Assembly (NCBI GenBank): GCA_003511165.1
Contig: DOJW01000004.1
Location: 4,015-68,014, forward strand
Direction: 5' to 3'
Length of the DNA: 64,000 bases
From: Candidatus Babelota bacterium
Lineage (GTDB): Bacteria; Babelota; Babeliae; Babelales; UBA12411
A program made the translations under genes and the position numbers. Below the pieces are notes generated by a model, which was not told the origin of the DNA, ran no database searches, and saw only the letters and a program-made list of their open reading frames with translations. Below are positions 2,843 through 62,744 of the stretch, one piece after another. Positions within the stretch are counted from its first letter, which is position 1; each line of letters opens with the position of its first letter.

Positions 2843-2875
2843 AAAGGATTTTTATGAATTTTAAGAAATTTTTCA
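2843..2875 (+). repeat. 33-bp segment (RBS, ATG and first codons) identical to 4023-4055
   Basis: AAAGGATTTTTATGAATTTTAAGAAATTTTTCA is present at both paralog starts. Confidence 0.9.
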
Positions 2876-4023
2876 GTTTTTTGGTTTTAATATTTGTTTC
2901 TACAAATTTTATTTTACAATCTACTCCACAAACAGGACCTAAAAATAAAAAAGGGGGAACAACTCATCAATCCAGATCATTACTTAACGACGACTCAAAT
3001 AACACACTTTTCGAATTAGATTTGGACAAACAACAGAAGAAACCACATTTAACACTAATCGAAAGACTTAAAGACGAATTATTCAAATTTAAAAAAACAA
3101 ATTCGCCAAGAAGTAGAAGTCAAAGCCCTAACTATTTTGGAAATTCAAATAATAACACTAATGCTCAACCAGCAAACACTCATCCTTTCCTTGCCGGACT
3201 AGATTCAACAAACTCTAAACAAATCATTTTTATTATAAATTCTGCAAAATACGAGAAAGAAATTGTTGAAATTTTAAATGAAATGGCAGCTCTTTTTAAC
3301 TCCATAAAACAAAATGATGAAGAACTATGGTTTGTGATTGTTCAAGCAAATAAATTTCTTAGAGATATAATTTCCGCTTGCGTTGAATTAAATGAAGCAT
3401 TACCAAACGATTTAAGAGTTAATTTTCATAATTTAACTATCAATTGTGATCATATTTTTAGATTCGATACTAGACATCAAGCAGGTTTTCACTTTTTAGC
3501 AGATAAACAAGATTTAGTAGTCATGCAAGATACAATAGAAGAAGATACACAATCACATGTATTTTGTGCTCATCACCATGCAAACAAAGCATGTCCTCAT
3601 GGTAAATTTTCTACATTTTTCCCACAGCATATGACACACGCTGATGTTATCGAATCTGTAAGACAAAGTTTCTACCAACTCAAAATAGCATTCGGTGAAA
3701 GCAAGTATATTGCATTCAACTTAAAATATCAGATTTATTTAGAAGTATTTTTGAAAAATGAAAATGGAATAATAACTATCACATCTGCATTTCCCATTCT
3801 TTATTTTATAGAAAATGGAAGTAATTCTCCTAACCATCCATTCTCTAAAGGACAAATTTCAACAGCTATACGAGAAGCAAAAAATAATATTGATTTCTTT
3901 ACAAGATATAAAACAGATAGAGAAACAACTATTTTAGATCTAGCATCTATTCTAAAAAATAAAAATTTAACCAAAGCAGAATCTGGAATTTACGTCGAAG
4001 TATCAAATAATCTTCTTCAATAA
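2854..4023 (+). CDS. Secreted (Sec-leader) protein with C-terminal EndoU-like ribonuclease module, paralog 1
   Basis: 389 aa. Leader MNFKKFFSFLVLIFVSTNFIL. C-terminal motifs DHIF-x7-AGFHFL, AHHH, GKFSTFFP, ITSAFPILYF resemble the EndoU/XendoU H-H-K signature. AAGGA RBS lies 6 nt upstream of the ATG. Confidence 0.55.
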   Translation: MNFKKFFSFLVLIFVSTNFILQSTPQTGPKNKKGGTTHQSRSLLNDDSNNTLFELDLDKQQKKPHLTLIERLKDELFKFKKTNSPRSRSQSPNYFGNSNNNTNAQPANTHPFLAGLDSTNSKQIIFIINSAKYEKEIVEILNEMAALFNSIKQNDEELWFVIVQANKFLRDIISACVELNEALPNDLRVNFHNLTINCDHIFRFDTRHQAGFHFLADKQDLVVMQDTIEEDTQSHVFCAHHHANKACPHGKFSTFFPQHMTHADVIESVRQSFYQLKIAFGESKYIAFNLKYQIYLEVFLKNENGIITITSAFPILYFIENGSNSPNHPFSKGQISTAIREAKNNIDFFTRYKTDRETTILDLASILKNKNLTKAESGIYVEVSNNLLQ

Positions 4024-4055
4024 AAGGATTTTTATGAATTTTAAGAAATTTTTCA
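4023..4055 (+). repeat. 33-bp segment identical to 2843-2875
   Basis: Same RBS and start sequence as paralog 1. Confidence 0.9.
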
Positions 4056-5776
4056 AATTTATTACATTTTCAGTTTTAATTTTTATTTCTACAGATTTTT
4101 TGCTAAAAGCTACTCCGCCAGACACTCCACCAGACACTCCTGAATCTAAAAAAGATGAAACTCCAAAAAGTAGAAAAACACCAAGAAAAGGTCATATCGC
4201 ATTACCTATGGATAGCGATGAAAGCTCTTCAGAAAAAGATGATTCTGAACAATTTAGCGAAGATGGTGATCCCGCGGTAAAACTCACTTTTGGGGCTCCT
4301 GGAAATATTCCAAAAGCATCCTTTTTATTCCCTCCTAAAACTACAACTCATCATAAGCTCAAAAAGAAAAAAGAAGCCGAAGACGGCGATCAACTTTCAG
4401 ATGAAGATACTCCTACAGCAGGACCTATTGGTTTCACTACTGCAAAAAAATCTGATGTTGCAAAATTTTCGAAAGGCACATTTGCTTATCTCTCAAAAGA
4501 CTCACTAGATGAAGATGACGCTAAAAGCAAAACCTTACATAAAAAAAGAATAAGCAATAGCGTCGCAAGCAGTTCATCATCATCATCATCATTAGCAGCA
4601 GCTCCACCGGAATCACATGCAAAACGTACACGCATTAAAAAAAGTCTTACTACCGCTTCCCATTCAAGACAAAAATTTTTAGATCAACAAGCAGATCCTT
4701 TTGCTGAATTGGAAGATGAAGATGATACCGCTCCCTCTGAAAAACTAAAACAAATATTAGATGCTCTAAAAGAATTACCCCTAACTCCGGGATCAGGCTC
4801 TAGCTCTGTAGGTTTCAGCTTCATGCCCTTGCCCCCAGAACAGCAAATGAGACCGCCTTTTTCGCCAATGGAATCACCGATACTAAATCATCCTATTATA
4901 AAAAAAATAGATCGTCGCAAATCCCAAGAAATAACTCTTTTAATAAGGTCTACACAAGAAGAAAATGAAAAAATTGCAATTTTAAATTTAATGGCAGAAT
5001 TTTTAAGATTCATAAAAAACAACGATGAAATAACTTGGTTTGATATTGTTCAAAAAAACAGATTTCTTCAAAATATAATTTCCGCCTGTGTTGAATTAAA
5101 TCAAAGACTCCCCATAAATTTAAGAAAGAATCTAAATAATTTAATCATCGATTACCGCCATATTTTTGAAATGCAACATCAATCAGGGTTTCACTTTCTA
5201 GGGGATAAAGAAACACTTATTCTGCCAGAAACTAAAGAAGAAAATCCTATAACACAGGTATTTTGCGCGTATCACCATGTTAGCGGAGAGTGCCCCAATG
5301 GTAAATTTTCTACATTTTTTCCTCAACGCATGTCTAAAAGAGATGTAATAGAATCTGTAAGAAATAGCTTCAATCTACATAAAATAGCATCTAGTGAAAG
5401 TAAATATATTTCGTTCGATGCACAATATAATATTTATTTAGAAGTATTTTTGAAAAATGAAAATGGGATAATAACTATCACATCAGCATTTCCTATTCTT
5501 TATTTTATTCAATTAGATCGTGAACATAATATTGCTTTAAATAATTCACCTTACTCTCCTGAAGTAATTTTAAAATCTATAAGAGAGGCAACAAAAAAAG
5601 AAGATCTCGATATTTTAATTAAATACAAAACGGAAAGAAGAACAACTATTTTAGATATAGCTCCTATTCTAAAATTAAAAAATGCAACTAAAGCAGAATC
5701 TGGAATTTACGTCGAAGTATCAAATGAATTTATTGAAGGGATAGAACAATCAGCCAGCGCGTCGTCTTCAAGCTAA
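4034..5776 (+). CDS. Secreted protein with long acidic/Ser/Pro-rich disordered region and C-terminal EndoU-like module, paralog 2
   Basis: 580 aa. Same leader and same C-terminal motifs as paralog 1 (RHIF-x6-SGFHFL, YHH, GKFSTFFP, ITSAFPILYF). About 280 aa of low-complexity sequence lie between the leader and the module. A 35-bp identical run links 5432-5466 and 3733-3767. Confidence 0.55.
   Translation: MNFKKFFKFITFSVLIFISTDFLLKATPPDTPPDTPESKKDETPKSRKTPRKGHIALPMDSDESSSEKDDSEQFSEDGDPAVKLTFGAPGNIPKASFLFPPKTTTHHKLKKKKEAEDGDQLSDEDTPTAGPIGFTTAKKSDVAKFSKGTFAYLSKDSLDEDDAKSKTLHKKRISNSVASSSSSSSSLAAAPPESHAKRTRIKKSLTTASHSRQKFLDQQADPFAELEDEDDTAPSEKLKQILDALKELPLTPGSGSSSVGFSFMPLPPEQQMRPPFSPMESPILNHPIIKKIDRRKSQEITLLIRSTQEENEKIAILNLMAEFLRFIKNNDEITWFDIVQKNRFLQNIISACVELNQRLPINLRKNLNNLIIDYRHIFEMQHQSGFHFLGDKETLILPETKEENPITQVFCAYHHVSGECPNGKFSTFFPQRMSKRDVIESVRNSFNLHKIASSESKYISFDAQYNIYLEVFLKNENGIITITSAFPILYFIQLDREHNIALNNSPYSPEVILKSIREATKKEDLDILIKYKTERRTTILDIAPILKLKNATKAESGIYVEVSNEFIEGIEQSASASSSS
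4574..4591 (+). repeat. (TCA)6 trinucleotide microsatellite inside a poly-Ser tract
   Basis: Read directly. Part of an SSSSSSSS run in the 580-aa protein. Confidence 0.9.
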
Positions 5777-10114: not shown

Positions 10115-10597
10115 TTAATAATATCCGTCAAGTTCGCCAGCTTGATGCAATTGATATTTAACGTTGCTTGATAATCTTTGCCATGAAATTAATTTCTGTC
10201 TTAATTCTGTCATCTTTATATCGCATGCAATCCTTGCATCTGGAGATTCCGGATCTAATACTCCAGGGCTTTTCTCATAATAACCGATTGTTTCATTTAA
10301 TTCTCGAATTGGTTTATTACAAGCAAACAATACTGAGCTAGTAATTATAGAACCTTTTTCTAAAAGAAATTCTGCTATTGTAAACAAATCAACTCTTTCA
10401 CAAGCTCTTTGCAACGGTAAAAAAAATTTTTCATCTTTTTCATCTATACAACTTGGATTTAAACTAACCAAAAATCTAACAAATTCAAGATTGCCTGCTT
10501 TGATAGCATCAAAAATCGCATGATGCACACCCAATAAATTAGATTCCCCTAATATTGAAAAAAACAAAAATGTTAATAATTTAAAATACTTTTTCAT
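10115..10597 (-). CDS. Short ankyrin-like secreted protein, paralog of 11304..11984
   Basis: 160 aa. The leader MKKYFKLLTFLFFSILG is encoded by 50 bp identical to the 11304 paralog. One ANK-like unit (IFDAIKAGNLEFVRFLV...LPLQRACE). Confidence 0.6.
   Translation of the reverse strand: MKKYFKLLTFLFFSILGESNLLGVHHAIFDAIKAGNLEFVRFLVSLNPSCIDEKDEKFFLPLQRACERVDLFTIAEFLLEKGSIITSSVLFACNKPIRELNETIGYYEKSPGVLDPESPDARIACDIKMTELRQKLISWQRLSSNVKYQLHQAGELDGYY
10548..10597 (-). repeat. 50-bp perfect repeat of 11935-11984 covering the leader-coding 5' end
   Basis: CCTAATATTGAAAAAAACAAAAATGTTAATAATTTAAAATACTTTTTCAT on the plus strand at both loci. Confidence 0.9.
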
Positions 10598-10644
10598 GGT
10601 ATTCCCCCAACTTATTTTTAATTTAATTGAATTCTAACTTCATA

Positions 10645-11292
10645 TTATTGAATAAGTTCCATAGAAGTAGCCCCCCTACTTTTTAGAAACGTTATTGTAT
10701 TCTTTAAATTTTCTATAACTTCAGATTGCAAATCTATTTTTTCTTGAAATTCATCTAAAAATTTTTCTGTAAATTTAGCATCCACCTTCATTAAATAGTT
10801 ATATGTTTTTCCCAACTCTTTAAAATAAGGCATTTCAATGGCGTTATATTTAATAATTGCAGTATCTAAAATCGAATCCCCAAAGGAGTTAACATAAGAA
10901 ACATCCGCTCCATTATTAACTAATAACTTAACCAAATGATGTGGAATATTTTTATATACTGCTACCTGCAAAACAGAAAAACCAGGTAATCTTGTTTCAA
11001 CTACGTTTACATCTACCACAACATACAAGATTAAAAATTTAAAAATTTTTTCTAAAATTTCACGCTTATCTAAATCTTCTTCGTCGCCTAATCTCTCACA
11101 TAATTTAAATAAAGGATTTACACCTCTTTCATCGACAAAATTTACAGATTCAGGATCTTCTTCAACCAAAAGTTTAATTCGCTCATAATCTGCATTTTCT
11201 ACCACATCAAAGATTTCATGATGTTCTGCAAATATGCTAAAAGCACTCCCAAGTATTGATAAAAATATTAATAGTTTTAAACTTTTTTTCAT
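10645..11292 (-). CDS. Ankyrin-repeat protein with Sec-type leader
   Basis: 215 aa. Leader MKKSLKLLIFLSILGSAFSIFA. ANK unit GFSVLQVAVYKNIPHHLVKLLVNNGADVSYVNSFGDSILDTAI. Confidence 0.7.
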   Translation of the reverse strand: MKKSLKLLIFLSILGSAFSIFAEHHEIFDVVENADYERIKLLVEEDPESVNFVDERGVNPLFKLCERLGDEEDLDKREILEKIFKFLILYVVVDVNVVETRLPGFSVLQVAVYKNIPHHLVKLLVNNGADVSYVNSFGDSILDTAIIKYNAIEMPYFKELGKTYNYLMKVDAKFTEKFLDEFQEKIDLQSEVIENLKNTITFLKSRGATSMELIQ

Positions 11293-11303
11293 AAATAATT
11301 TTA

Positions 11304-11984
11304 TTAAGCTTCTGATCTAAGACTCTTCTGAATCAAAGAAATTAGGGTTTCAAATTTATTTAACACTACACTTTGGGTTGCAAATTCAGATTGAAGATCT
11401 ATTAAACATTTTTCGTTATATTCAAGCACTCTCAAAAAGCTAGGAAGATAACTTGATGGTGTTAATTTTAAAATATTTTCTTGATGATATTTTATTGATA
11501 ACTTCAACGGCCGATAAATGATTAAAACAGCACATAGCTTATTCTCAGCAACATTTAAAACTGAATCTCCAAAAGAATTTATATAAGAAACCCTTGCCCC
11601 TTTTTCAATTAATGATGCAATGGAATCATATGAAAGATCATTTTGCACTGCACATTGTAAAACTGAAAAATTGGGAATATTCGGTTCAATAAAATTTACA
11701 TCTGCATCCGTACTCTGTAAAAAATATAAAAATATTTTTTCTAAATTTTTACGTCTATTAAAATCCTCTTCCGAACCATATATATCACACAATTTAAACA
11801 AAGGAGTAACACCTTTTTCATCAATACAATTTACACATGTACAATCTTGCCTTATCAATGTTTTAATTCCTTCAAAATCCGCCAAAACTAAAGTATCAAA
11901 AATTACATGATGCACTCCAAATAAATTCGACGCGCCTAATATTGAAAAAAACAAAAATGTTAATAATTTAAAATACTTTTTCAT
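11304..11984 (-). CDS. Ankyrin-repeat protein with Sec-type leader
   Basis: 226 aa. ANK unit FSVLQCAVQNDLSYDSIASLIEKGARVSYINSFGDSVLNVAE. Confidence 0.7.
   Translation of the reverse strand: MKKYFKLLTFLFFSILGASNLFGVHHVIFDTLVLADFEGIKTLIRQDCTCVNCIDEKGVTPLFKLCDIYGSEEDFNRRKNLEKIFLYFLQSTDADVNFIEPNIPNFSVLQCAVQNDLSYDSIASLIEKGARVSYINSFGDSVLNVAENKLCAVLIIYRPLKLSIKYHQENILKLTPSSYLPSFLRVLEYNEKCLIDLQSEFATQSVVLNKFETLISLIQKSLRSEA
11935..11984 (-). repeat. 50-bp perfect repeat of 10548-10597
   Basis: See 10548-10597. Confidence 0.9.
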
Positions 11985-12703
11985 AAATAACCTTCCATTT
12001 TTATGAATTTAGGATTTAGGTAGTGAAATAAATTCATCATTTTTAATAAATCGTGGACAATTTTACGCTGACAATCAAAAGGGAAACTTAGATGCTCTTC
12101 TAAATGAAATTGATGTTTTTCTCGTTGTTGTATTAAATCTTCTAATGAATATCCACAATATTTAGAACATTCCATATCCCTAATTTTTTTTATTTTATTT
12201 TTATGAGAATTAATTTCTTTCCGAAGCGCATCTAAAACTACTTTTTCCTTTAAATAATTTTTTTCTGCTATATCCAATACAGAATTTCCAGATAAATTTA
12301 CATAAGAAATATCTGCGCCCTTTTTTACCAATAATTCAATTAAAGAATATGAAATATCTTTATCAATAGCATATTGTAAAATTGAAAATTTTGGCGCTGT
12401 TTCTAAAACTGAATTTACATTCACATCTGTATATTTAACTATATATCTAAAAATATTTTTTAATTTTTTACGTCTATCAAAATCCTCTTCCGAACCATAT
12501 AAATCACATAATTTAAATAAAGGCGAAACTCCATTTTCATCAACAAAATTTACAGATTCAGGCTCTCTTTCCAATACCAAAAGAACTTTGCTATAACTAG
12601 CTTTTTCTATCGCATCAAAAATTGCATGATGCTCACAAAACAAATTGGAAACGGAAATTAATGCAAGAAATGCAAAAGTTAATAATTTAAAACCTTTTTT
12701 CAT
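11981..12703 (-). CDS. Ankyrin-repeat protein with Sec-type leader
   Basis: 240 aa. ANK unit FSILQYAIDKDISYSLIELLVKKGADISYVNLSGNSVLDIAE. Overlaps the next paralog by 4 bp. Confidence 0.7.
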   Translation of the reverse strand: MKKGFKLLTFAFLALISVSNLFCEHHAIFDAIEKASYSKVLLVLEREPESVNFVDENGVSPLFKLCDLYGSEEDFDRRKKLKNIFRYIVKYTDVNVNSVLETAPKFSILQYAIDKDISYSLIELLVKKGADISYVNLSGNSVLDIAEKNYLKEKVVLDALRKEINSHKNKIKKIRDMECSKYCGYSLEDLIQQREKHQFHLEEHLSFPFDCQRKIVHDLLKMMNLFHYLNPKFIKMEGYL

Positions 12704-47867: not shown

Positions 47868-50204
47868 TTAATAATAATCTTCTGGCGCTTCTATGATTTT
47901 AGTTTCAGGTTTAAACCTTCCTCCAAAAGACCCTAGGGATTCTAATTTAAATGAAAAAACAAACCCTCTTTCACTTCTCACAATTCCCTGTTGTCTATAA
48001 CGTTTTTCTTGCAAACCAAACGAAATGCCCCAACAATGTCCATTTAACTTTACATCTAAACGATGACATAAAGCATTTATATTTTGAAACAAAGAAATTA
48101 AAGAATTTTCAGGAGAAAAAAATTGACCTTCATAAGATATTCTCATCGCCTTGTTAGCCTGCATACTAAAACCAAAAAGATAAAAGGATGGCACATTAGA
48201 AAGCAATTGACGAATAACCTGTTCTTTTCTGCTTTGAAATACCCAACCAACATGTGCATCAAAATTTTTAAAATTTATTGAAGCTTCAGCCTCATTATCA
48301 AATATCGTAAAATTATGCATATCATATTGCTGTAGTAAATTAAAACGAAAAAAATCATATTCGTAAGAAAAATCAACCTTAAAAGGCATCAAGTGATTTT
48401 GTCCTATTGCCCTATCAAGATAAAAAAGATCTGGACTCTTATAAAAGTCATACGCTTGCCCCAAAGTTAAGCCCGCACAACCCTTTCTAAAATACCAGTT
48501 ATTTCTAAGTTCTAGCCCTATTTTATTGTTCGGATAAATTCTATCCCATTCATCGATAAATCCCCAATCATCTTGCTTGATTTTAGGAATAAATTTGTAA
48601 GTTAAAACTGGCTGAAAAAAGAAATCATTTTCGCTCTTGGTACCAATTTTGGTAAATTCTGGAAAAGCCCATTCAGCATCACCTTGCAAAAGAGCTCTCG
48701 CCGCACATTGATCATCCAATCTAATTTCACTATAAGCAGATCTATTAGTGCTAACATATGGTGTAATATAATTTGATTTACTTCTAAACTGAATATTAGG
48801 AGAAAGAGCAATACGAATGATATTTCTTTTAAATTTTAAATAATTTTCAAGAACGCCTTCATAAAACAAACGTAATGTTGAAAAATTTTCAAAAGGAACA
48901 GGTTCATACGACGAAACAACATCATTACCTACAATTGTCTTAAAAATTATTTTTCTTGATAAATTTGCATAATCAACAAATAAATCATGTTTATATTTTG
49001 CAAATTTGCTCAAGGAATAAAAATTTGAATTCCATTCAAAATGAGGAACCCTCGACCGAACCATACGCTCATCAAGCTCGAATTTACTTGTATTAGAAAA
49101 TGTAAAATCTTCTCTAAAAACTTTATCACGATCAACCTTTGCAAAAATAAGTCCATTATTTTTACTATGCCATCGACTTATAAAAGAGTTATAAAATTTA
49201 TCTTCAACCGAATCAGGTAAGCCTAAAAAATCATACCCTATCCTCTTGTCGGAGCCAAAGTCTACATTAACTAAATTATCTATTTTAAAATTTTTAAATT
49301 TTAAAGGTTGAAAATGTTTAGCCTGAATAGATGTTCGCCATTCATCTTTTGAAATTATTTTAAAATCTTCTTCTACATAAGCCTGATATTCTTTTGCAAA
49401 TTTTGTATTAACTAAGGTGTAGTCATCATTGTTTCTACCCCATCTAAACTCGTCGTAAAAAACATATCCCTTTTTATTTTTCCAGTTAACCCCTAAGGTC
49501 GTATCCATTCTTGGTCTAATTTCCCAATAATATTCTTGAGTTAAACCAAAACCCAACTTCTTATCCAAAGTAAATTTAGGAACTAAAAATCCAGATTTTG
49601 ATTGTGCTTGAGCAGGAATAACTATTTTAGGAATTAAAAAAACTGGAATATTCTTTACCCTTAAAGATATTCCCTTACCTTTAATCACATATTTATACAA
49701 CTTTGCTTCATCTGCATGCAAATGCCAATGTGGACTAGGGTGATCACAAGGTGTGTAAACTAAATCTGAAAGCTTCCAGGTAAACTCATCTCTTTTTTCT
49801 GCTTTTTTTGCCGAGATATATCGCTGATCCATTTGAATTTTTACATTATCCGCATAACCAGTTTTTTTATCCAAATCTAGATAAATTTTATCTGCAAGCA
49901 TTAAAAAGTCAGGAGTTTCAAGCTTCACAAAACCAAAAGGAGCGGCGGTCGCCTCTATGAATTGCTTTTCTTTATCAGCCTCTACACGATCAGCCCAAAT
50001 ATGAACATTTTGATCAACCAAAACTTCAACATTTTCTTCAAAAATTATTTTATTTAAACTTATGATTCTCTGAGAGACACTGTTAATTCGTACTACTCTA
50101 AAAGATTCGACAACATCCCGAACCACAGCTTTTGATTGTGATACATAAAACGAAAATAGTAAAAACGAATAAATAAATAAACGTTTCAAAATGGCCTTCT
50201 GCAA
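47868..50204 (-). CDS. lptD: LPS-assembly outer-membrane protein LptD/OstA
   Basis: 778 aa. Signal peptide, N-terminal OstA-like region, large aromatic-rich beta-barrel-type C-terminus. Adjacent envelope genes. Confidence 0.75.
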   Translation of the reverse strand: MQKAILKRLFIYSFLLFSFYVSQSKAVVRDVVESFRVVRINSVSQRIISLNKIIFEENVEVLVDQNVHIWADRVEADKEKQFIEATAAPFGFVKLETPDFLMLADKIYLDLDKKTGYADNVKIQMDQRYISAKKAEKRDEFTWKLSDLVYTPCDHPSPHWHLHADEAKLYKYVIKGKGISLRVKNIPVFLIPKIVIPAQAQSKSGFLVPKFTLDKKLGFGLTQEYYWEIRPRMDTTLGVNWKNKKGYVFYDEFRWGRNNDDYTLVNTKFAKEYQAYVEEDFKIISKDEWRTSIQAKHFQPLKFKNFKIDNLVNVDFGSDKRIGYDFLGLPDSVEDKFYNSFISRWHSKNNGLIFAKVDRDKVFREDFTFSNTSKFELDERMVRSRVPHFEWNSNFYSLSKFAKYKHDLFVDYANLSRKIIFKTIVGNDVVSSYEPVPFENFSTLRLFYEGVLENYLKFKRNIIRIALSPNIQFRSKSNYITPYVSTNRSAYSEIRLDDQCAARALLQGDAEWAFPEFTKIGTKSENDFFFQPVLTYKFIPKIKQDDWGFIDEWDRIYPNNKIGLELRNNWYFRKGCAGLTLGQAYDFYKSPDLFYLDRAIGQNHLMPFKVDFSYEYDFFRFNLLQQYDMHNFTIFDNEAEASINFKNFDAHVGWVFQSRKEQVIRQLLSNVPSFYLFGFSMQANKAMRISYEGQFFSPENSLISLFQNINALCHRLDVKLNGHCWGISFGLQEKRYRQQGIVRSERGFVFSFKLESLGSFGGRFKPETKIIEAPEDYY

Positions 50205-50790: not shown

Positions 50791-52365
50791 TTAACTTGCT
50801 CTAAAATACATTTTTCTTAAGTAAGTTTCACCGACTCCAAGAATATTCTTTGTAAGCCAATATAAAACTAATCCGGCTGCAAAATTTGCAAAAAGAACTG
50901 TTACAAATATTGACATAAACCACATCATAATCTTTTGTTTGTCATCAGAGACTGGAGTCATCTTTTGTTGCCAAATCATAGAAATTCCCATCAAAATTGG
51001 CAAAACATAATAAGGATCTTTTGAAGACAAATCCACGATCCATCCAAAGAATGGCGCTTGGTATAAATCCATATAGTTCGCAAGTACTTTATATAAAGCC
51101 ATCATAATAGGTAAATCGAGAAGTAATGGTAAACATCCTGCAAGTTGTCCTGTTGGTGAGAGATTATTTTCTTTATGAAATCTCATAATCTCTTCTTGTT
51201 GACGCTTCATATCGCCTTTAAATTTTTCTCTGATTCTTGATATTTGTGGCTGAAATCTTTGATATTTTTCCATAACATTCGCACTTTTCATCGTAAGAGG
51301 CAAAAGAGGAATTTTTATCAAAATAGCAAGGAGAATAATTGCAAGACCATAGTTATGAACAAGTCCATAAATCCAAGAAAGTAATTTTAAAATAAATTTG
51401 CAAAGCCATGAGAACCAACCAAAATCAAGTAAACTTTCTAATCGACTATCAACAGCTGCTAAATCTTCAATATCTTTAGGCCCAAAATAAAAGGAAAGAT
51501 TCCAAGTTGTTTTTTCTTTAACTTGTGCACCTTCTAAAATTGAAAATAAATTGTTATTCAAATTTTTATAATAAGCTCTTTGAGTAAAATGCTCTGTGTC
51601 CCCTACAAGCGCATGAGCAAAGTATCTATCTTCAGAGCCAAATATTTCAGGCATAATCCATGCACTGTCGGCTTCACTTTCCTTTGTGGATGTAAATTTC
51701 TTAAGAGATTTTTTAACAGAATCTAAATAAAAACCATTATTTGAATCATTTGATAATTCATTTAAAAATGGAGCTGGAAAAAAAAGTCTTGGTTTGATTG
51801 GGTTTATATTTGTACTTTTTGGGGTGAATTCCAAATTCAAATCGATTTGATAAACCTTTTTAGAAACAGAGTAAATTTTCTTAATGATCCAATTTTCAGA
51901 TTCTGCAACATACGAAACATTTATTTTATCTTGTAAATCCTGTTTATTTTCAAGCTTGTAGAAATATGGAGTCTTTTCGTCCAAAGCTAAAAGCAAGCAA
52001 CTTTCTTCTCTTTGAAAAAAATCTTTAGGGTAAACAGATTTTAAAGCCTTATTTTCTTTGCCCGGTCTTTTATTGTACTCGACCGAAGAGATCACGCCGC
52101 CAAAGCTTGAAAATGCAATTTTATAAAGCTCTGTCTCAACAGGAGTCACAATTTCTTGAACCGTAATTTTTTTATCTATAAAATCTATTTCTTTATTCAG
52201 CGGCTTTAGCTGCTCTTCTTTTGAAGGAATTCTAACACCTTGTCCCGGCTGAACATTTTCTACCACTGCCGTATCTTTTGAGTCGTTCCTATGTAAAAAA
52301 TATTGCAAAAATATAACCGTCATCGAAGATAACACTAACGTCAAAAATAATTTTTTATCCATCAA
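50791..52365 (-). CDS. yidC: Membrane protein insertase YidC
   Basis: 524 aa. N-terminal TM plus periplasmic domain. C-terminal Oxa1 core (P.Q....KYK.D..K...E.M.L.K....NP..GCLP.L.Q.PI). Confidence 0.9.
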   Translation of the reverse strand: MMDKKLFLTLVLSSMTVIFLQYFLHRNDSKDTAVVENVQPGQGVRIPSKEEQLKPLNKEIDFIDKKITVQEIVTPVETELYKIAFSSFGGVISSVEYNKRPGKENKALKSVYPKDFFQREESCLLLALDEKTPYFYKLENKQDLQDKINVSYVAESENWIIKKIYSVSKKVYQIDLNLEFTPKSTNINPIKPRLFFPAPFLNELSNDSNNGFYLDSVKKSLKKFTSTKESEADSAWIMPEIFGSEDRYFAHALVGDTEHFTQRAYYKNLNNNLFSILEGAQVKEKTTWNLSFYFGPKDIEDLAAVDSRLESLLDFGWFSWLCKFILKLLSWIYGLVHNYGLAIILLAILIKIPLLPLTMKSANVMEKYQRFQPQISRIREKFKGDMKRQQEEIMRFHKENNLSPTGQLAGCLPLLLDLPIMMALYKVLANYMDLYQAPFFGWIVDLSSKDPYYVLPILMGISMIWQQKMTPVSDDKQKIMMWFMSIFVTVLFANFAAGLVLYWLTKNILGVGETYLRKMYFRAS

Positions 52366-52505
52366 AAACCCTTTTAAACTTAAACAAAAACATTTCGTTG
52401 CAAATTTTAATAAGTAATATGTTAGAGAATTTTATAAGAATTCGCAAAAATTAATGCCCTAAGGTAATAAACTATACACAAAATCCAAACATTACTTCAC
52501 AAAAC

Positions 52506-52535
52506 TTGCCAAAAAACATTATTTTCAAATAATAG
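52506..52535 (+). promoter_or_regulatory. Candidate sigma70 promoter for the DOT1-like gene
   Basis: TTGCCA (52506-52511), 18 nt spacer, TAATAG (52530-52535). AGGA RBS before the ATG at 52571. Confidence 0.4.
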
Positions 52536-52570
52536 AAGTCATTAAAAATGATAATAAGGATAGGAAAACA

Positions 52571-53251
52571 ATGAAAAAAAGCCTAATTTTAATCTTAGTT
52601 TGCTCACTTATGGTTTCAAACTCTGTAATTTGCAAAACAAAACAACAAACAATAAATCCAATAAAACAAAAAATTGAAAAACTATATTTAAATAAAAATG
52701 GATTTAACATTAGCCCAAAAGAATATGAAAAAATTACAAATCAAGGCGGAGCTCCAACTTATGGCGAAATCACATATGAATCTCTAGAAACAATCATAAA
52801 AGATTTGAAAATGACAAAAAAAGATATTTTTTGTGATCTGGGATGCGGAATAGGAAAAGTATGCGTGCAAGTACGGCTTACAACTCCTGTAAAAAAAAGT
52901 ATCGGAATAGAATTATCTGAAAGCAGAGTCAAACAAGCTCAAGAAATAAAGACACTTCTTGAAAGAAAACAATTAATATCAAACAAAGGTGGTAAAATAT
53001 TAAAATTTTATAAACAAAATATTCTTGAAGCAGACCTAAAAGATGTTACTGTAGTCTTTATGTGTTCAACATGCTTCTCAGAAGATTTGATGAAAAAAAT
53101 CACAAAAAAACTTTCCTCATGTAAAAAAGGACTAAAAGTTGTTACATTAAAACAACTTCCTGCAAATAAACAATTTGTTTTACAACAGGAAAAAAATCTT
53201 GCGATGAGTTGGTCTTCTGCTTCCCCTGTTTATTTTTATAAATTAAATTAA
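52571..53251 (+). CDS. DOT1-like SAM-dependent methyltransferase with Sec-type leader
   Basis: 226 aa. Leader MKKSLILILVCSLMVSNSVICK. YGEITYESLETIIKDLKMTKKDIFCDLGCGIGKVCVQV...GIE aligns by eye to the human DOT1L core as I recall it ([38 protein letters not shown]...GVE). Confidence 0.65.
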   Translation: MKKSLILILVCSLMVSNSVICKTKQQTINPIKQKIEKLYLNKNGFNISPKEYEKITNQGGAPTYGEITYESLETIIKDLKMTKKDIFCDLGCGIGKVCVQVRLTTPVKKSIGIELSESRVKQAQEIKTLLERKQLISNKGGKILKFYKQNILEADLKDVTVVFMCSTCFSEDLMKKITKKLSSCKKGLKVVTLKQLPANKQFVLQQEKNLAMSWSSASPVYFYKLN

Positions 53252-53295
53252 AAAGCATCTATAAAATGGAACCGTTTCAAATTTAAGGAATTTTA

Positions 53296-55285: not shown

Positions 55286-55780
55286 ATGAATAAAGCATTA
55301 TACATGTCATTAATAGCAGCAACATTGGTTTTAGCACCTTCATGCGGCAACAAAAAAGAAGAAGTTAAACAAGAAGAAACAACACAAGTAGCAGAACAAA
55401 AACCAGTAGCATTATCAGAAGTTTTAAAAGCTGATGCTCTTTACAAAGTTGTTCCTGCAGTAAACTTCAACAAAGAAAATGCTGATGACAGCGTAAAACT
55501 ACTTGAAATGGACAAAGAATTTATTCATGCAGCAAAAGGCACACAAGTAGAAAACGTTCTTAAAAAGTTCTTCAATGGCCAAAAAGATATCGTAATCCTT
55601 GAACTTGATGAAAAATTACTCACAGAAAAAGGCTTAACAGCAAAAATGGAACAAAATAAAGAAGGTGGCGAAGTATTCCCACACCTTGTCGGCGAAAAGA
55701 AAATGATCCCTGCAGCTGCTGTTCTTTCAGTTGTTTCAGTTGAAGAACAACCAGAAGGCTCTTGGATGGCAAAAAAATAA
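55286..55780 (+). CDS. Probable lipoprotein with DUF952-like C-terminal domain
   Basis: 164 aa. Leader ...LVLAPSC (imperfect lipobox). FIHAA..TQ...V.KFF.GQKDIVILELDE..L......E......FPHLVG.....AAAV matches the DUF952 pattern I recall (FIH..Q....F...L.ID...L...E...FPHiYG...AV). Confidence 0.55.
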   Translation: MNKALYMSLIAATLVLAPSCGNKKEEVKQEETTQVAEQKPVALSEVLKADALYKVVPAVNFNKENADDSVKLLEMDKEFIHAAKGTQVENVLKKFFNGQKDIVILELDEKLLTEKGLTAKMEQNKEGGEVFPHLVGEKKMIPAAAVLSVVSVEEQPEGSWMAKK

Positions 55781-55926: not shown

Positions 55927-57996
55927 ATGAAAAAGCAGATTTTACTTTTAATATTTTTAGCAAACATTTTCACCCCTTTATTTTCAGAAGATGAAATTCC
56001 AACCCTCGCTCAAAAAATTTGTGACATCAACATGAAATCTTTTCCAAGAGAAGACAGTTCCTGGGAAACTCATACCATGCTTGAATATGTAAATCATTTA
56101 AAAGAACATATTTCACATCCATCTTCTAGTGTTAAACGCAATATGGGTTTTGAGTTTTTCAACAAATATGAAAAAACTAATTCTTTAAAAGTCGACCATG
56201 ATAACTCAACGCTTTGGGAAGACTTAGACTTATTTCGTGGCAAAAAAGATTTAAGCAAATATACAGCAAACTCACTTAGTCGAGAAGAAACTGAAATTGG
56301 TAAAATCAGTTTTTATGAAATGTTGTCTAATCCAACAGCCGATACAAAATTATTAAAAAAGCGACAAGAACTAATAAAATTTTTCATTGCTAATCCGCAA
56401 GTTGCAAAAGATTGTAAAAATGCACTTGCTCAAATCGCCTCTTCCGAAAACTTCTTACTCGCATTTTTGGGTCACGATGAGTTAGAACACAACGCGAATG
56501 ATGCATTCTTCAATAATGTTTTAACTAAAAAATTAAATGATTCACAAGTAGCTCTTTTGATCAAAAATAGTTTGGCTAATGCCAATCGCTTACGGTATTT
56601 CGCTCTAGATGTTTTTTTAATAACAGTATTTATTTCTTATGGAACATTAAACCTCACAGGAGTCATTGATAGTCCAGCATGGCTGCGCAAAATTACTTAT
56701 GATTACAAAAACTTCGACAGAGGAATTCTTATAGAATGTCTTAAATTTGTACAAACAAAAATTCCACAGTCAGCCATACTTTTACAGCTGTTACAAAATA
56801 AATATGTTCAATCGTCATTAATATTAGGTGCAGGGGTATGGAGCGCTACTGAACTCACAAATCATTTTGACTGGGTTTATGGGAAAATAAAATTTGAACA
56901 ACTACTTCAAGAATATATGTATCATTTAGCAAAAGTCACAGACGGTATCAAAAAGCTACAAGAATGCTGCAATAAAAATCCAATTTTAGCAGAGTTCGAA
57001 GAGTTTAAACCGCTTCTAAAATTTTTTGATAACAATGAAAAACATGCATCAACACTTCAAGATACGCTCAGTTTGTTTCAACAATCTACTTTCAATAAAC
57101 CTGGCTCAATATTCTGTAACCATGGGGCAGTATTCAAAGCCTATGGTTTAATGAAAAATTTAAAAGATGAGTATAAAAAAGCAATCGTAGCAACAGCAAG
57201 AATTGATGTTTACGTTTCTCTTGCAACACTTGTAAAAGAATTTGAAGATAAACCTGTTTCTTTTACATTTCCACAATATGTAGAAAATTCAACAACTCCT
57301 TTTATCGAACTTAATGATTTTTGGCATCCAATTTTAGATCCAAAGAAAGCTGTACCAAATTCGATAGAACTTGGAATTAACAACCAAAGATCAAATGTCA
57401 TTCTCACCGGTCCAAATGAAGGTGGAAAATCAACTGTATTAAAATCTTTAACTTTATCAATTTGGCTTGCACAAACCTGCGGAATTGCTCCTGCAAAAAA
57501 TATGTGCTTCACTCCTTTTGTAAATATCTCAACATACTTAAACATCACAGATGACATCGGAGCCGGAAATTCATTATTCAAAGCAGAAGTTTTGCGTGCA
57601 CAAAAATTGATAGATTCAATCAAAAGCTCTAAACCCAAAGAATTTAGCTTTTCAGTGTTCGACGAAGTATTCAACGGCACGTCGCCAATCGAAGGATCGG
57701 CTGCCGCACACAGCGTCGCAAAGCATTTAGGAAGTTTTTCACAAAGCATCTGCCTGATCGCTACACATTTTGATTTATTAACAATGCTCGAAGATGAAAC
57801 TACTAATTTCCAAAACTACAAAGTTTCTGTTATCAAAGATATAGATGAAAAAATAATTTCTTATCCGTATAAATTAGAATTTGGTAAATCAGAGCAACAC
57901 ATCGCTTTAGATGTTTTAAAAAATCAGGGATTTGATTCATCAATTATTAAAGATGCGCAAGAAAAGGTTAAATCTATTTCATTTTCTTTTATGTAA
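55927..57996 (+). CDS. MutS-family ATPase (domains III and V only) with N-terminal leader and internal TM hairpin
   Basis: 689 aa. GPNEGGKST (Walker A), DDIGAGNSLFKAEV, FDEVFNGTS (Walker B), ATHF. No mismatch-binding domain I and no Smr or endonuclease domain. Hydrophobic segments at residues 1-20, about 225-245 and about 295-315. Confidence 0.7.
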   Translation: MKKQILLLIFLANIFTPLFSEDEIPTLAQKICDINMKSFPREDSSWETHTMLEYVNHLKEHISHPSSSVKRNMGFEFFNKYEKTNSLKVDHDNSTLWEDLDLFRGKKDLSKYTANSLSREETEIGKISFYEMLSNPTADTKLLKKRQELIKFFIANPQVAKDCKNALAQIASSENFLLAFLGHDELEHNANDAFFNNVLTKKLNDSQVALLIKNSLANANRLRYFALDVFLITVFISYGTLNLTGVIDSPAWLRKITYDYKNFDRGILIECLKFVQTKIPQSAILLQLLQNKYVQSSLILGAGVWSATELTNHFDWVYGKIKFEQLLQEYMYHLAKVTDGIKKLQECCNKNPILAEFEEFKPLLKFFDNNEKHASTLQDTLSLFQQSTFNKPGSIFCNHGAVFKAYGLMKNLKDEYKKAIVATARIDVYVSLATLVKEFEDKPVSFTFPQYVENSTTPFIELNDFWHPILDPKKAVPNSIELGINNQRSNVILTGPNEGGKSTVLKSLTLSIWLAQTCGIAPAKNMCFTPFVNISTYLNITDDIGAGNSLFKAEVLRAQKLIDSIKSSKPKEFSFSVFDEVFNGTSPIEGSAAAHSVAKHLGSFSQSICLIATHFDLLTMLEDETTNFQNYKVSVIKDIDEKIISYPYKLEFGKSEQHIALDVLKNQGFDSSIIKDAQEKVKSISFSFM

Positions 57997-59674: not shown

Positions 59675-61546
59675 TTAATAAAATAAATTTGTTTTAATTT
59701 TTTCGCAAATGCGAATTTGAAATATGAGAAGTGATATTGCAGCTGGAGTCATACCAGGAATGAGCTGTGCTTGAGCAATATTTGCAGGTTTAAATTTTGT
59801 TAATTTTTGTTGTAGCTCGACACATAATCCAGGTAAATCTTTGTAATCAAAATTTTGTGGAATGTGTAAACTTTGATATCGAGAAGCTTTTTCAACTTCA
59901 CGAACTTCGCGTTGCAAATAACCTTCGTATTTTATCTCTGCATGGATATTGAGCAAAACTCTGCTATTTAATAAATATTGATACTCCAAATTATTTTGTA
60001 ATAATTTTTCTGCAAGCAGTTCTTTTGCCCGCTGTTTTATCTCATCTGTAAACTCTATAACAAAAAATGATTTATACAGTTCATCATTTCGATTTACTGA
60101 TTTTATAAGTTCAACAGATTTTTGAATGATATTTTTTTCTCTCAAAAATTGTTCATACATTTCATCACTAATTAATCCCAAATCTCTTGCATGAGGCATT
60201 AGTCGCAAAAATGTATTATCTTGTCGCAAAAGAAGTCTACGTTCAGCGCGCGATGTAAACATTCGATAAGGCTCATCAATACCGATAGTCACAAGATCAT
60301 CAATCATAACGCCAATATAACTTTCATTACGATTTAAAATAAAAGGGTCTTTATTATTAACTTTTAAATGCGCATTTATCGCAGCGACCAATCCTTGGCC
60401 AGCTGCTTCTTCGTATCCGGTTGTTCCATTTATTTGTCCTGCAAAAAATAAATTTTCTACATTTTTTGCTTCAAGCGAATGTTTTAAATTTGTTGGCGGC
60501 AAAAAATCATATTCGATTGCGTATCCGGCGCGCGCAATTTCTGCATTTTCAAAACCTTTGATACTACGAATATAATCAATTTGAACATCAAGCGGCAAAG
60601 ATGTTGAAAGACCAGCTGGATAAACTTCATCACTTTCTAAACCTTCAGGCTCAACAAAAACATGATGTGTTTTGCGATCTGGAAATCTTGCAACTTTGTC
60701 TTCGATCGAAGGACAATATCTTGGTCCAATTCCTGTGATAGCACCACCAAATCTAGCTGATCGTGCGAAATTGCTTCGAATAATTTCGTGAGTACTTTCA
60801 TTTGTGGCAGTTACAAAACATGAAACTTTTTCTTCGCTTTGCACACCATCAAATTCATAAAGAAAGTCTAGTTGATGAGATTCGTGCTGATCAAATTTTG
60901 AGTAATCAAGTGATGATTTCAAAAGCCTTGGAGGTGTTCCTGTTTTTAATCTTCCAAGTTTTATGCCCAAAATTTCTTGCAACGAACCTGTCAAAAATGT
61001 TGCAGCCGGTTCACCCTCTCTCCCAGAACTGTGATTTTTTAAACCGATATGAACAGTTCCATTCAAAAATGTACCAACAGTGACAACGACAGATTTTGCA
61101 AAAAATTCTTCGCCAGATGCTACTTTAATACCGATCACTTTATTTTTATTTTCTAGTTTTTCAAATAAAAGCGAAGCAACTTCTCCTTGAAATATTTCTA
61201 AATTTTTAGTTTGAGATAAAATTTCTTGCGCCAATTTTGAATATTTAAATTTATCAACTTGAACTCGTAGTCCTTGTACAGCTGGACCCTTGCTAGTATT
61301 TAACATTCGTGCTTGCAAATGTGATTTACTACAAAGTTTTGGCATCAAACCATTAAAAGCTGCGATTTCATAAACAATGTGACCTTTACCCAGTCCACCT
61401 ATCGATGGATTGCATGGACACCAGGCTATTCGATCTTTTTTTATTGTTACAAGTAATGTTTTTGATCCCAAATTAGCAGCAACGTATGCTGCTTCACAAC
61501 CGGCATGTCCACCACCAACAATAATCACATCATATTTTTCAAGCAT
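59675..61546 (-). CDS. mnmG: tRNA uridine-5-carboxymethylaminomethyl modification enzyme MnmG (GidA)
   Basis: YDVIIVGGGHAGCEAA, GPRYCPSIEDK, FFAGQINGTTGYEEAA. ATG at 61546 has an AGGTGG RBS. Confidence 0.95.
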   Translation of the reverse strand: MLEKYDVIIVGGGHAGCEAAYVAANLGSKTLLVTIKKDRIAWCPCNPSIGGLGKGHIVYEIAAFNGLMPKLCSKSHLQARMLNTSKGPAVQGLRVQVDKFKYSKLAQEILSQTKNLEIFQGEVASLLFEKLENKNKVIGIKVASGEEFFAKSVVVTVGTFLNGTVHIGLKNHSSGREGEPAATFLTGSLQEILGIKLGRLKTGTPPRLLKSSLDYSKFDQHESHQLDFLYEFDGVQSEEKVSCFVTATNESTHEIIRSNFARSARFGGAITGIGPRYCPSIEDKVARFPDRKTHHVFVEPEGLESDEVYPAGLSTSLPLDVQIDYIRSIKGFENAEIARAGYAIEYDFLPPTNLKHSLEAKNVENLFFAGQINGTTGYEEAAGQGLVAAINAHLKVNNKDPFILNRNESYIGVMIDDLVTIGIDEPYRMFTSRAERRLLLRQDNTFLRLMPHARDLGLISDEMYEQFLREKNIIQKSVELIKSVNRNDELYKSFFVIEFTDEIKQRAKELLAEKLLQNNLEYQYLLNSRVLLNIHAEIKYEGYLQREVREVEKASRYQSLHIPQNFDYKDLPGLCVELQQKLTKFKPANIAQAQLIPGMTPAAISLLIFQIRICEKIKTNLFY

Positions 61547-62744
61547 AAATCCCACCTACGGATGCCCAAACAGTACCTTCAAAAGGATATCTCCTAACAG
61601 TTCTTCGCAGCGGAGATTGCCATGCAATAAAAATATGTTCCAATTGTTCTCTAAGCATGCCCACTTGTTCACGAGTGACATTACAACCATCTATTTTGAT
61701 AGCTCTCAGATTTTTTGCCATTCGAATAAATTCAGCAATAAATTCTGATGATAAATTTGGATTCTGGGATATATCCAAAGCCTGAATTAATGGACAAATC
61801 GTTAATAATGTTAATAATGCAGAACCCGAAATATTTGAACCTGGAATAGATAAAGTTTTGAGATTTGGACAACTTTGTAAAAAATTAATTAAAAAATCTT
61901 CTGGATATTCAGATGTATTACTCAATTCTAATCGCCCCAATCTTTTACATAATTCTTTGTTTTTTGAAAATTCTTGCAAAATTTTTGGAATAGTAAATCT
62001 AAAACCTAAAGATTTCAAATTTGGCAGAGAATTAACAAAAGTAGCTACATCCTCCAAGGCCAAATTCGTTCTACCACAAAAATCAAACTCCTCAATATTT
62101 TGGTTCCCAACCAAAGGCTGAAGCTGTTCTTTTGTTATTTCAAGACCCAAACTTAATACCAAGTTTTCAGATTTATAAATTTCACTCGCAAGGAATACGG
62201 GAACTATGGCTTTTGATAAACCTCCGATTGTAAGATTTAAAGAATAACTTAAAATATCCTTATTTCTTTTTAAATTAATTTTCAAACCTTTTAATATAGC
62301 TTCCCAACGATCGCCTTTACTCAAAGAACAATTTAATTCAACATTTCTCCATATAGGCCTATCAGTAAAAAAACGTTCAAGATTTTGTGGAGAAAACATC
62401 ATAAAATAATTTAGACTTATACTCTCTAAATATGGGAATCTTATTTCTAATGCATTTAATTTTTCATCATCCCAAGGTCGAACTTTACAAACCTGTCCAC
62501 CCGGTAATAAATCTACTCCCGGAATTACAAACATTTGAGAATGTTGAGTTAAATTATAATCCCATCGCCTACAAACTCTTCTTAATTCATAAGCCCTAGG
62601 CACATCTTTATCAATAGTTTCACTTAAAACCGAAGCCAAAAGCTCATCTGGCAAATCACCTAAACCTGCCTCTATTTTTGATAACGGTAAAAACCCAAAA
62701 AACAGTAAAATTATTAAAAAAGTGTTAGTTTTCTTTAAAATCAT
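61539..62744 (-). CDS. F-box / cysteine-containing LRR (FBXL-like) protein with N-terminal hydrophobic leader
   Basis: 401 aa. F-box LPDELLASVLSETIDKDVPRAYELRRVCRRWDYNL. C-terminal CC-type LRRs (SCPNLKTLSIPGSNISGSALLTLLTICPLIQALDISQNPNLS). The stop overlaps the mnmG start by 8 bp. Confidence 0.7.
   Translation of the reverse strand: MILKKTNTFLIILLFFGFLPLSKIEAGLGDLPDELLASVLSETIDKDVPRAYELRRVCRRWDYNLTQHSQMFVIPGVDLLPGGQVCKVRPWDDEKLNALEIRFPYLESISLNYFMMFSPQNLERFFTDRPIWRNVELNCSLSKGDRWEAILKGLKINLKRNKDILSYSLNLTIGGLSKAIVPVFLASEIYKSENLVLSLGLEITKEQLQPLVGNQNIEEFDFCGRTNLALEDVATFVNSLPNLKSLGFRFTIPKILQEFSKNKELCKRLGRLELSNTSEYPEDFLINFLQSCPNLKTLSIPGSNISGSALLTLLTICPLIQALDISQNPNLSSEFIAEFIRMAKNLRAIKIDGCNVTREQVGMLREQLEHIFIAWQSPLRRTVRRYPFEGTVWASVGGIYA

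Follow-up and report, generated by a model that had tools for sequence, protein, structure and literature searches.

What would an intracellular bacterium do with a DOT1-type methyltransferase that begins with an apparent export signal? The question arises from an open reading frame (ORF) in a stretch of 64,000 nucleotides from Candidatus Babelota bacterium (GenBank assembly GCA_003511165.1, contig DOJW01000004.1, positions 4,015 to 68,014 of the forward strand), which was analysed as a whole and is called the window here. This ORF (52571..53251 (+) of the window) starts with ATG and contains 226 codons plus a stop; translated, it matches the hypothetical protein DEO28_02920 of Candidatus Dependentiae bacterium with 100% identity. 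The product is a DOT1-family protein with intact binding motifs for S-adenosylmethionine (SAM). As to its role, the balance tips slightly towards a Sec-exported effector that probably leaves the cell by type II secretion or in outer-membrane vesicles and methylates a host protein, with a non-histone target likelier than lysine 79 of histone H3 (H3K79) on the nucleosome.

Bacterial DOT1-like proteins are already known, and homologues in Dependentiae have been noted in passing. They have been characterised in one organism only, Legionella, where LpDot1 rewires host RNA splicing, not chromatin.

A DOT1-family catalytic core

The Pfam profile DOT1 (PF08123) aligns with the window protein over profile positions 18-171 of 205 and scores 91.2 bits (E 8.3e-26, gathering cut-off 23). 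The next-best Pfam family is the generic Methyltransf_31 with 31 bits, and many methyltransferase families match only weakly, below threshold. Searched with the single sequence, the PDB returned 9ne1_A (8e-13), human DOT1L (1e-10), yeast Dot1 (6e-10) and the archaeal methyltransferase aKMT (5e-9). A subfamily profile built from an alignment of 73 homologues ranked LpDot1 (9ne1) at 1.6e-34, DOT1L at 1.8e-20, yeast Dot1 at 1.3e-14, aKMT at 4e-14 and Trypanosoma brucei DOT1A at 6e-13, with the first non-DOT1-type methyltransferase at 9e-10. The same alignment was fed to AlphaFold2. The resulting model (predicted local distance difference test, pLDDT, 92.5; predicted TM-score, pTM, 0.85) was compared with the PDB by Foldseek, and the top 50 matches all belong to the DOT1 family (LpDot1, human DOT1L, yeast Dot1, T. 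brucei DOT1A, aKMT). The best of them is 9ne1, deposited as 'a bacterial DOT1L methyl-transferase', with a target-normalised TM-score of 0.81.

A first-pass annotation of this DNA had reached the same family by eye, pairing YGEITYESLETIIKDLKMTKKDIFCDLGCGIGKVCVQV..GIE with a DOT1L segment that ends in ..GVE, and VTVVFMCSTCFSEDL..KKGLKVVTLK with SVIFVNNFAFGPEV..KEGGRIVSSK of DOT1L. HMMER reproduced both alignments. The description of a DOT1-like methyltransferase cut down to its catalytic core is borne out by the Pfam score, by the order of the PDB profile matches and by the Foldseek list. Two of the checks suggested at that stage, HMMER against Pfam DOT1 and an AlphaFold structure, both point to the DOT1 family, and human DOT1L is among the structural matches.

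The SAM-binding motifs are well preserved (Table 1). The YGE loop is invariant in 73/73 and 78/78 aligned homologues as well as in LpDot1 and DOT1L. D89, G91, G93, G95 and E114 do not vary within the subfamily, and little or no variation is seen at G112-x-E114 and N/D150. With eukaryotic DOT1/DOT1L the window protein shares family, fold and a set of equivalent residues (D161/G163/G165/G167, E186 and D222 in DOT1L; D89/G91/G93/G95, E114 and N150 here). Lysine is the presumed target residue.

Outside this core the protein differs from DOT1L. Loop 273-286, helix 319-331 and F131, which positions H3K79, have been defined as the nucleosome elements of DOT1L (bioRxiv 10.64898/2026.01.11.698932). The profile alignment spans DOT1L residues 96-273 only and ends where the nucleosome/ubiquitin-binding loop (14 residues) starts; the N-terminal helical domain and the DNA-binding tail of DOT1L have no counterpart in the window protein. 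Since the protein stops at residue 226, 12 residues past W214, a counterpart of helix 319-331 is missing as well. From the end of the alignment to W214 there are 17 residues compared to 32 in DOT1L up to W305, a spacing that assumes W214 to correspond to W305. Judged from these alignments, both the loop and the C-terminal helix appear to be absent.

The active site has also been rebuilt. Gly60 aligns with F131 of DOT1L, Cys165 with N241 and Thr167 with F243. In DOT1L, N241 is sensitive to mutation and lines the lysine channel; across the subfamily its position varies (C/A/S/N/H/G). The loop after strand 4 reads M-C-S-T-C-F-S in the window subfamily, V-N-N-F-A-F-G in DOT1L and I-N-S-S-T-L-F in LpDot1. 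Arg119, Trp214 and Tyr223 are subfamily invariants, and W214 aligns with the Trp of the LpDot1 segment 'QMSW'. We infer that W214 and Y223 are equivalent to W305 and Y312/313 of DOT1L; a PDB search with the C-terminal 42 residues, aimed at the W305/Y312 equivalence, returned no matches.

By sequence and by structure, the closest solved relative is LpDot1 (lpp3025 of L. pneumophila), which is PDB entry 9ne1 and is 99% identical to the Legionella protein P0220 of our set. BLASTP aligns the window protein with LpDot1 at 27% identity over 182 residues (E 3e-17). Both are bacterial DOT1-like cores of about 230 residues with no accessory domains, both come from intracellular parasites of protists, and both contain the YGE loop, motif I, the post-I Glu and the C-terminal Trp. 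LpDot1 lacks the nucleosome loop, the C-terminal helix and F131, which is Ala there (bioRxiv 10.64898/2026.01.11.698932), and the window protein seems to share all three absences. According to the same preprint, LpDot1 has no histone activity and methylates the splicing factor SFPQ at K518 (bioRxiv 10.64898/2026.01.11.698932). The two proteins differ at the position of N241, where LpDot1 retains the Asn (I-N-S-S-T) and the window protein reads M-C-S-T-C, and in that Arg119 is specific to the window protein's subfamily. They fall into separate clades in a rough neighbour-joining tree, and the window protein did not prove to be an orthologue of the Legionella clade.

A second prokaryotic relative is aKMT from Sulfolobus (PDB 5fa8/5jwj; profile 4e-14, Foldseek 5e-11), a minimal protein-lysine methyltransferase that is related to DOT1 and originates from prokaryotes. 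Unlike the window protein, aKMT is cytoplasmic and leaderless, and it lacks the N-terminal helices and a match to the YGE region. Against the aKMT equivalog model NCBIfam NF041081 the window protein scores 37.5 bits, far from the cut-off of 200.

The N-terminal leader and its distribution

The first residues of the window protein look like a Sec signal peptide, with n-, h- and c-regions laid out at the extreme N-terminus, a hydrophobic core of 13 residues and an n-region charge of +2 (Table 1). Hydropathy was screened in every substantial ORF of the window (66 in total); this and the other leader calls are heuristic measures. An N-terminal hydrophobic segment was found in 21 of the 66, and the window protein has the highest 11-residue hydropathy among them (3.29). 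Ribosomal and other cytoplasmic proteins of the window stay below 1.7. AlphaFold2 models residues 4-15 of the leader as a detached helix (pLDDT 64-76). A bacterial export leader is a further difference from DOT1L, next to the lost domains and the exchanged active-site residues.

Comparison with relatives shows that the presence of a leader is conserved although its sequence is not, which agrees with the Sec-type leader proposed in the first-pass annotation. A leader is present in about 68 of 75 metagenomic homologues, in nearly all genome loci from Dependentiae/Babeliales and from Finniella/Alphaproteobacteria, and in 104 of 140 further cluster representatives. Among 180 single-domain members, 148 have an N-terminal hydrophobic segment (median 15 residues). 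Sorted by type, these 180 comprise 94 with a short core (<=15 residues), 31 ambiguous cases, 23 that resemble transmembrane anchors and 32 with no segment. The net flanking charges of the subfamily (N-flank +1.5, C-flank +0.6) describe an N-in, domain-out pattern, and an [AVSTI]-x-A site occurs in the c-region of 49% of the subfamily compared to 10% of the Legionella clade. This charge bias and these cleavage-site motifs point to export of the catalytic domain.

The Legionella proteins follow another pattern. As a control set we used the 120 matches listed from an LpDot1-seeded search, with only the Legionella clade among them. A hydrophobic N-terminal segment is found in 115 of the 120 listed full-length proteins; it is longer than in the window clade (15-23 residues, median 17) and is followed by a strongly basic flank (N-flank -0.15, C-flank +5.2; for example MLDFISSK-MLFLCLILFLILFWLCF-DKARKELRINRWQKK), whereas the window clade has signal-peptide-type leaders. 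By the positive-inside rule, such a basic C-flank would keep the catalytic domain in the cytoplasm. This pattern fits a cytoplasmic domain that is handed to a type IV system. The hydrophobic N-terminus is visible in the Legionella proteins P0220, P0223, P0230 and P0266 and may matter for type IV handling or for location in the host; the LpDot1 preprint makes no mention of a transmembrane or hydrophobic N-terminus (bioRxiv 10.64898/2026.01.11.698932).

A third state is found in giant viruses, where 37 of 38 copies have no hydrophobic leader and start with a basic stretch instead. Giant-virus proteins are synthesised inside the host. The same core may travel with opposite signals: a putatively cleavable export-type leader in Dependentiae, a cytoplasm-retaining anchor in Legionella and none in giant viruses. 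The best match in BFVD is a DOT1-domain protein of Hyperionvirus. The viral copies on metagenome-assembled genome (MAG) contigs from IMG/VR (L082-L118) have 185-245 residues, and many begin with a basic stretch resembling a nuclear localisation signal, such as STRKVRISRKKTLK. Contig L081 (40% identity, GC content 21%) could be bacterial and mis-binned.

How widespread is this subfamily? With a threshold of E<=1e-30, the subfamily profile found 607 clusters (50% identity) among 1.84 billion cluster representatives; with E<=1e-10 it found 4856. In collections with one genome per species, 344 stretches code for relatives, dominated by Dependentiae/Babeliales. The other carriers are Finniella and other Alphaproteobacteria, Myxococcota, Oligoflexia, Francisellaceae, Legionellaceae, candidate phyla radiation (CPR) bacteria and an Acidobacteria MAG. 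One orthologue is in a cultured Dependentiae strain, Noda2021 (L045). In the rough neighbour-joining tree, calculated with no bootstrap, the window protein lies inside a Babeliales cluster and the leader-bearing lineages group together; leaderless Myxococcota and Francisellaceae/Legionellaceae sequences fall outside, and LpDot1 sits further off with CPR sequences. The Legionellaceae and Francisellaceae loci of this set (L073-L078) are leaderless, and so are homologues in Myxococcota, Acidobacteria and CPR bacteria. The notion that DOT1 is a purely eukaryotic enzyme is outdated in view of this large bacterial subfamily and of a published DOT1 tree in which 'Candidatus dependentiae' clusters with Legionella, protists and Megaviridae (PMC10117894).

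Some relatives contain two or three tandem DOT1-like domains (454-624 residues) behind a hydrophobic N-terminus. Examples are found in two Myxococcota MAGs (L061 2916-4145 and L062 3056-4282); P0076, P0077 and P0078 also belong to these multi-domain relatives.

Proposed export to the host and competing explanations

Dependentiae (TM6/Babeliales) are intracellular parasites of protists. In Babela massiliensis, no secretion system other than type II was detected, and signal peptides are present on 79 of its 126 ankyrin proteins (PMC4378268). The TM6 core genome includes a type II system with two copies of gspD (PMC4776705). In Chromulinavorax destructans, signal sequences are present in 44% of coding sequences, and early infection shows outer-membrane vesicles (PMC6561590). 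The ankyrin, F-box and Ulp1-like proteins of Babela and Chromulinavorax resemble our case in the type of organism and in their proposed route, a Sec leader followed by the type II system or vesicles. They differ in that they are mostly interaction repeats or hydrolases, and none is a DOT1-type methyltransferase. The window itself codes for leader-bearing ankyrin-like, F-box-like/leucine-rich repeat (LRR) and EndoU proteins. Since an F-box works only in a eukaryotic cell, its presence supports the idea of a route to the host for this organism's leader-bearing proteins.

Because the phylum exports eukaryote-like proteins by Sec and type II secretion (PMC4378268, PMC4776705, PMC6561590), a secreted, host-directed modifier is the best reading of the gene. 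The leader would bring the precursor to Sec, and the protein would cross the inner membrane of the parasite. The folded core of about 23 kDa would then be freed towards the protist host, probably by the type II system or by outer-membrane vesicles. In the cytosol or nucleus of the host, this core would methylate a host protein with host SAM. The periplasm has no obvious supply of SAM, which would imply a SAM-containing destination beyond it. There is a bacterial precedent for a secreted class I methyltransferase with a host protein as its target: Rv2067c of Mycobacterium tuberculosis, an H3K79 methyltransferase acting on non-nucleosomal H3 (PMC10739865). Rv2067c differs from the window protein in its export route, and we detected no sequence relationship between the two.

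Several observations weigh against an exported effector. The window protein's own leader is less clear-cut than that of its family: it offers only weak candidate sites for signal peptidase I (S16-N-S18/V and V19-I-C21/K, with the slash marking the cut), two Lys follow directly, and the flanking charges are balanced at +2/+2. Among the 148 orthologue leaders, 23 resemble uncleaved transmembrane anchors and 14 resemble lipoproteins with a lipobox-like motif, so the conserved property may be targeting to the envelope and not release. Signal sequences are also unusually common in Dependentiae, and in this window even a protein with MutS domain V has one; a leader may therefore not be a sign of secretion into the host. 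Free-living Myxococcota hold leaderless relatives, and the family is therefore not intrinsically a family of effectors. Finally, Cys occupies the position of the mutation-sensitive N241 of DOT1L, so that the activity of the window protein is only presumed.

These points can be turned into competing explanations. A periplasmic or membrane-tethered enzyme could modify the parasite's own surface or outer-membrane proteins with host SAM that enters through porins. It would resemble the system of Rickettsia, where lysine methylation of OmpB by PKMT1/PKMT2 shields the bacterium from host ubiquitylation. The export-type topology is compatible with this arrangement, and leaders of the anchor-like (23/148) or lipobox-like (14/148) kind would hold the enzyme at the envelope. 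Yet the majority of leaders are short, resemble signal peptides and have AxA-type sites, no case of SAM-dependent protein methylation in the periplasm is established, and LpDot1, the nearest of the characterised relatives, methylates a host protein. The structure of Rickettsia PKMT2 (5doo) is a very weak match (E 0.24), and the relation to PKMT1/2 is negligible. An envelope-resident enzyme seems unlikely to us. The opposite topology, a reverse signal-anchor in the inner membrane with the catalytic domain facing the bacterial cytoplasm, would allow methylation of bacterial proteins, as aKMT methylates chromatin proteins. In its favour are the +2/+2 flanks with several Lys past the hydrophobic segment, the leaderless homologues in Myxococcota, Acidobacteria and CPR bacteria, the significant relationship with aKMT (profile 4e-14) and the charge pattern of the LpDot1 clade, which is clearly N-out/C-in. 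On the other hand, a core of 13 residues that ends in polar S-N-S is short for a membrane span, the subfamily overall has a positive N-flank and AxA sites, and the other eukaryote-like proteins of the organism bear the same type of leader. We consider this topology distinctly unlikely.

The remaining alternatives concern the substrate. A secreted enzyme that enters the host nucleus and methylates H3K79 or its protist equivalent on chromatin would agree with the DOT1 family and fold and with the precedent of Rv2067c (PMC10739865), and a mature size of about 23 kDa would permit passive entry into the nucleus. The N-terminal domain of DOT1L is absent, its nucleosome loop and C-terminal helix appear to be without counterpart, F131 and N241 are replaced by Gly and Cys, and LpDot1, which misses the same loop and helix as well as F131, is inactive on histones; a chromatin target is thus very unlikely. 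For the same reasons (elements that appear to be missing, Gly60/Cys165, no histone activity of LpDot1) we abandon the label 'histone H3K79-type' of the first-pass annotation. Of its suggestion of a candidate nucleomodulin, the part that survives is the secreted host-directed modifier; the histone target is not supported, and LpDot1, the nearest characterised relative, methylates SFPQ K518. At the other extreme, the protein could be a generic class I methyltransferase for a small molecule, RNA or another substrate that resembles DOT1 only in its Rossmann fold. The weak, sub-threshold matches to many methyltransferase families could be read in this way. Membership of the DOT1 family removes the premise of a purely generic similarity: it is already refuted by the 60-bit margin for Pfam DOT1, by the top 50 structural matches, all to the DOT1 family, and by the order of the PDB profile matches, and the DOT1-specific YGE loop and the C-terminal Trp/Tyr speak against it. 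We give this reading practically no credence.

Returning to the exported effector, we tentatively propose a wider possibility for its subfamily. The window protein may represent a large, uncharacterised, Sec-exported branch of the family that is typical of Dependentiae and protist-associated Alphaproteobacteria such as Finniella, in which the topology signal is fitted to the available secretion machinery and in which the rebuilt, CxxC-like C-S-T-C loop and Arg119 may serve a new class of substrate. Speculatively, this loop could act as a redox switch, with the enzyme silent under the oxidising conditions of the periplasm until it arrives in the reducing cytosol of the host. This sister branch is much larger than the Legionella group, lies in the poorly known and mostly uncultured Dependentiae, and differs in export signal and active-site loop. 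We did not find it described that most of this subfamily has a Sec-type export signal with a charge bias opposite to that of the Legionella anchor, nor that its active-site loop has been remodelled to C-S-T-C and is accompanied by an Arg specific to the subfamily. Should these enzymes arrive in the host, the phylum would have in them some of its few candidate effectors with an enzymatic and hence directly assayable function, and the family would be a natural experiment in which one eukaryote-like catalytic core was adapted to different secretion routes. The orthologue in the cultured strain Noda2021 makes the question experimentally testable.

The locus and other window genes

The features of the gene are collected in Table 1. 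A Shine-Dalgarno-like AGGA motif (52562-52565) lies 5 nt 5' of the ATG. The gene is divergent from yidC (50791-52365 (-); Pfam 60KD_IMP 5e-50), as the first-pass annotation had recognised. The candidate promoter claimed along with it fared less well. The promoter-like element in the shared intergenic region matches the consensus at 10/12 positions, and this region contains 9 such matches compared to a mean of 16 in its shuffles. Because the region has fewer promoter-like matches than its shuffled versions, the promoter call has no statistical weight.

Table 1. Features of the DOT1-like gene and its upstream region (window coordinates).
Feature	Position	Strand	Evidence or remarks
Complete ORF, precursor of a DOT1-like class I SAM-dependent methyltransferase	52571..53251	+	Pfam DOT1 E 8.3e-26; identity to Dependentiae protein
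Candidate Sec-type leader, residues 1-21	52571..52633	+	n-region MKK, h-region SLILILVCSLMV, c-region SNSVIC; hydropathy, AlphaFold2 helix
Predicted mature catalytic domain, residues 22-226	52634..53248	+	AlphaFold2 pLDDT >90 from about residue 30; Foldseek
Y64-G65-E66 'YGE' loop over the SAM pocket	52760..52768	+	Y136-G137-E138 of DOT1L; loop-EF of LpDot1
Motif I, D89-L-G-C-G-I-G95 (DxGxGxG), SAM binding	52835..52855	+	Aligns with D161-G167 of DOT1L
E114, post-I acidic residue	52910..52912	+	E186 of DOT1L; invariant
C165-S166-T167-C168 loop after strand 4	53063..53074	+	In place of N241-N242-F243-A244 of DOT1L and N-S-S-T of LpDot1
C-terminal W214...Y223 segment	53210..53239	+	W214 and Y223 invariant in subfamily
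Intergenic region shared with divergent yidC	52366..52570	.	Promoter-like TTGCCA-16-AATAAT at 52506-52533 (+); AGGA

Downstream, a gap of 44 bp (53252-53295) separates the DOT1-like gene from genes for an ABC ATPase and an ABC-2 permease. We found no terminator-like site in this gap, and co-transcription with the two ABC genes is possible; the arrangement is not conserved elsewhere. Searching 80 related loci by tblastn with yidC, recR, the ABC ATPase/permease and the MutS-like protein identified no conserved partner, and all-against-all clustering of the flanking ORFs gave families that recur in at most 9 of 81 loci. The yidC and ABC neighbours are therefore incidental. The lack of a conserved partner gene fits a stand-alone accessory factor. 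A foreign origin was also considered on the basis of base composition and rejected, the GC content of the gene (27-28%) being unremarkable next to that of the window (32%).

Other genes in the window also carry leaders. At 10115-12703 (-), four tandem paralogous ORFs of 160-240 residues have near-identical leaders (MKKYFKLLTFLFF...), and three of them show weak matches to ankyrin repeats under the Pfam cut-off; this locus looks like a leader-bearing ankyrin array of the Babela/Chromulinavorax kind. The F-box-like candidate is an ORF of 401 residues at 61539-62744 (-) with a signal-peptide-like leader (…LPLSKIEA/GLGD) and weak F-box-like and LRR matches. Two adjacent ORFs, 2854-4023 (+) and 4034-5776 (+), have a common leader (MNFKKFF…) and bacterial EndoU domains (E 2e-5 and 4e-7), and may code for secreted nucleases. 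A clear signal peptide (…VSQSKA/VV) begins the 778-residue ORF at 47868-50204 (-), which overlaps the start of recR by 19 nt. Its position upstream of recR and its size would suit an LptD-like outer-membrane protein, and Pfam gave no match at E<=1e-3. The DUF952 protein at 55286-55780 (+) has a lipoprotein-type leader (…LVLAPSC/GNKK). The protein with MutS domain V (55927-57996 (+), 689 residues, E 3e-30) has a signal-peptide-like leader (MKKQILLLIFLANIFTPLFS/EDE), which is odd for a DNA-mismatch ATPase; relatives of it also occur close to the DOT1-like gene at two further loci (L020 and L027).

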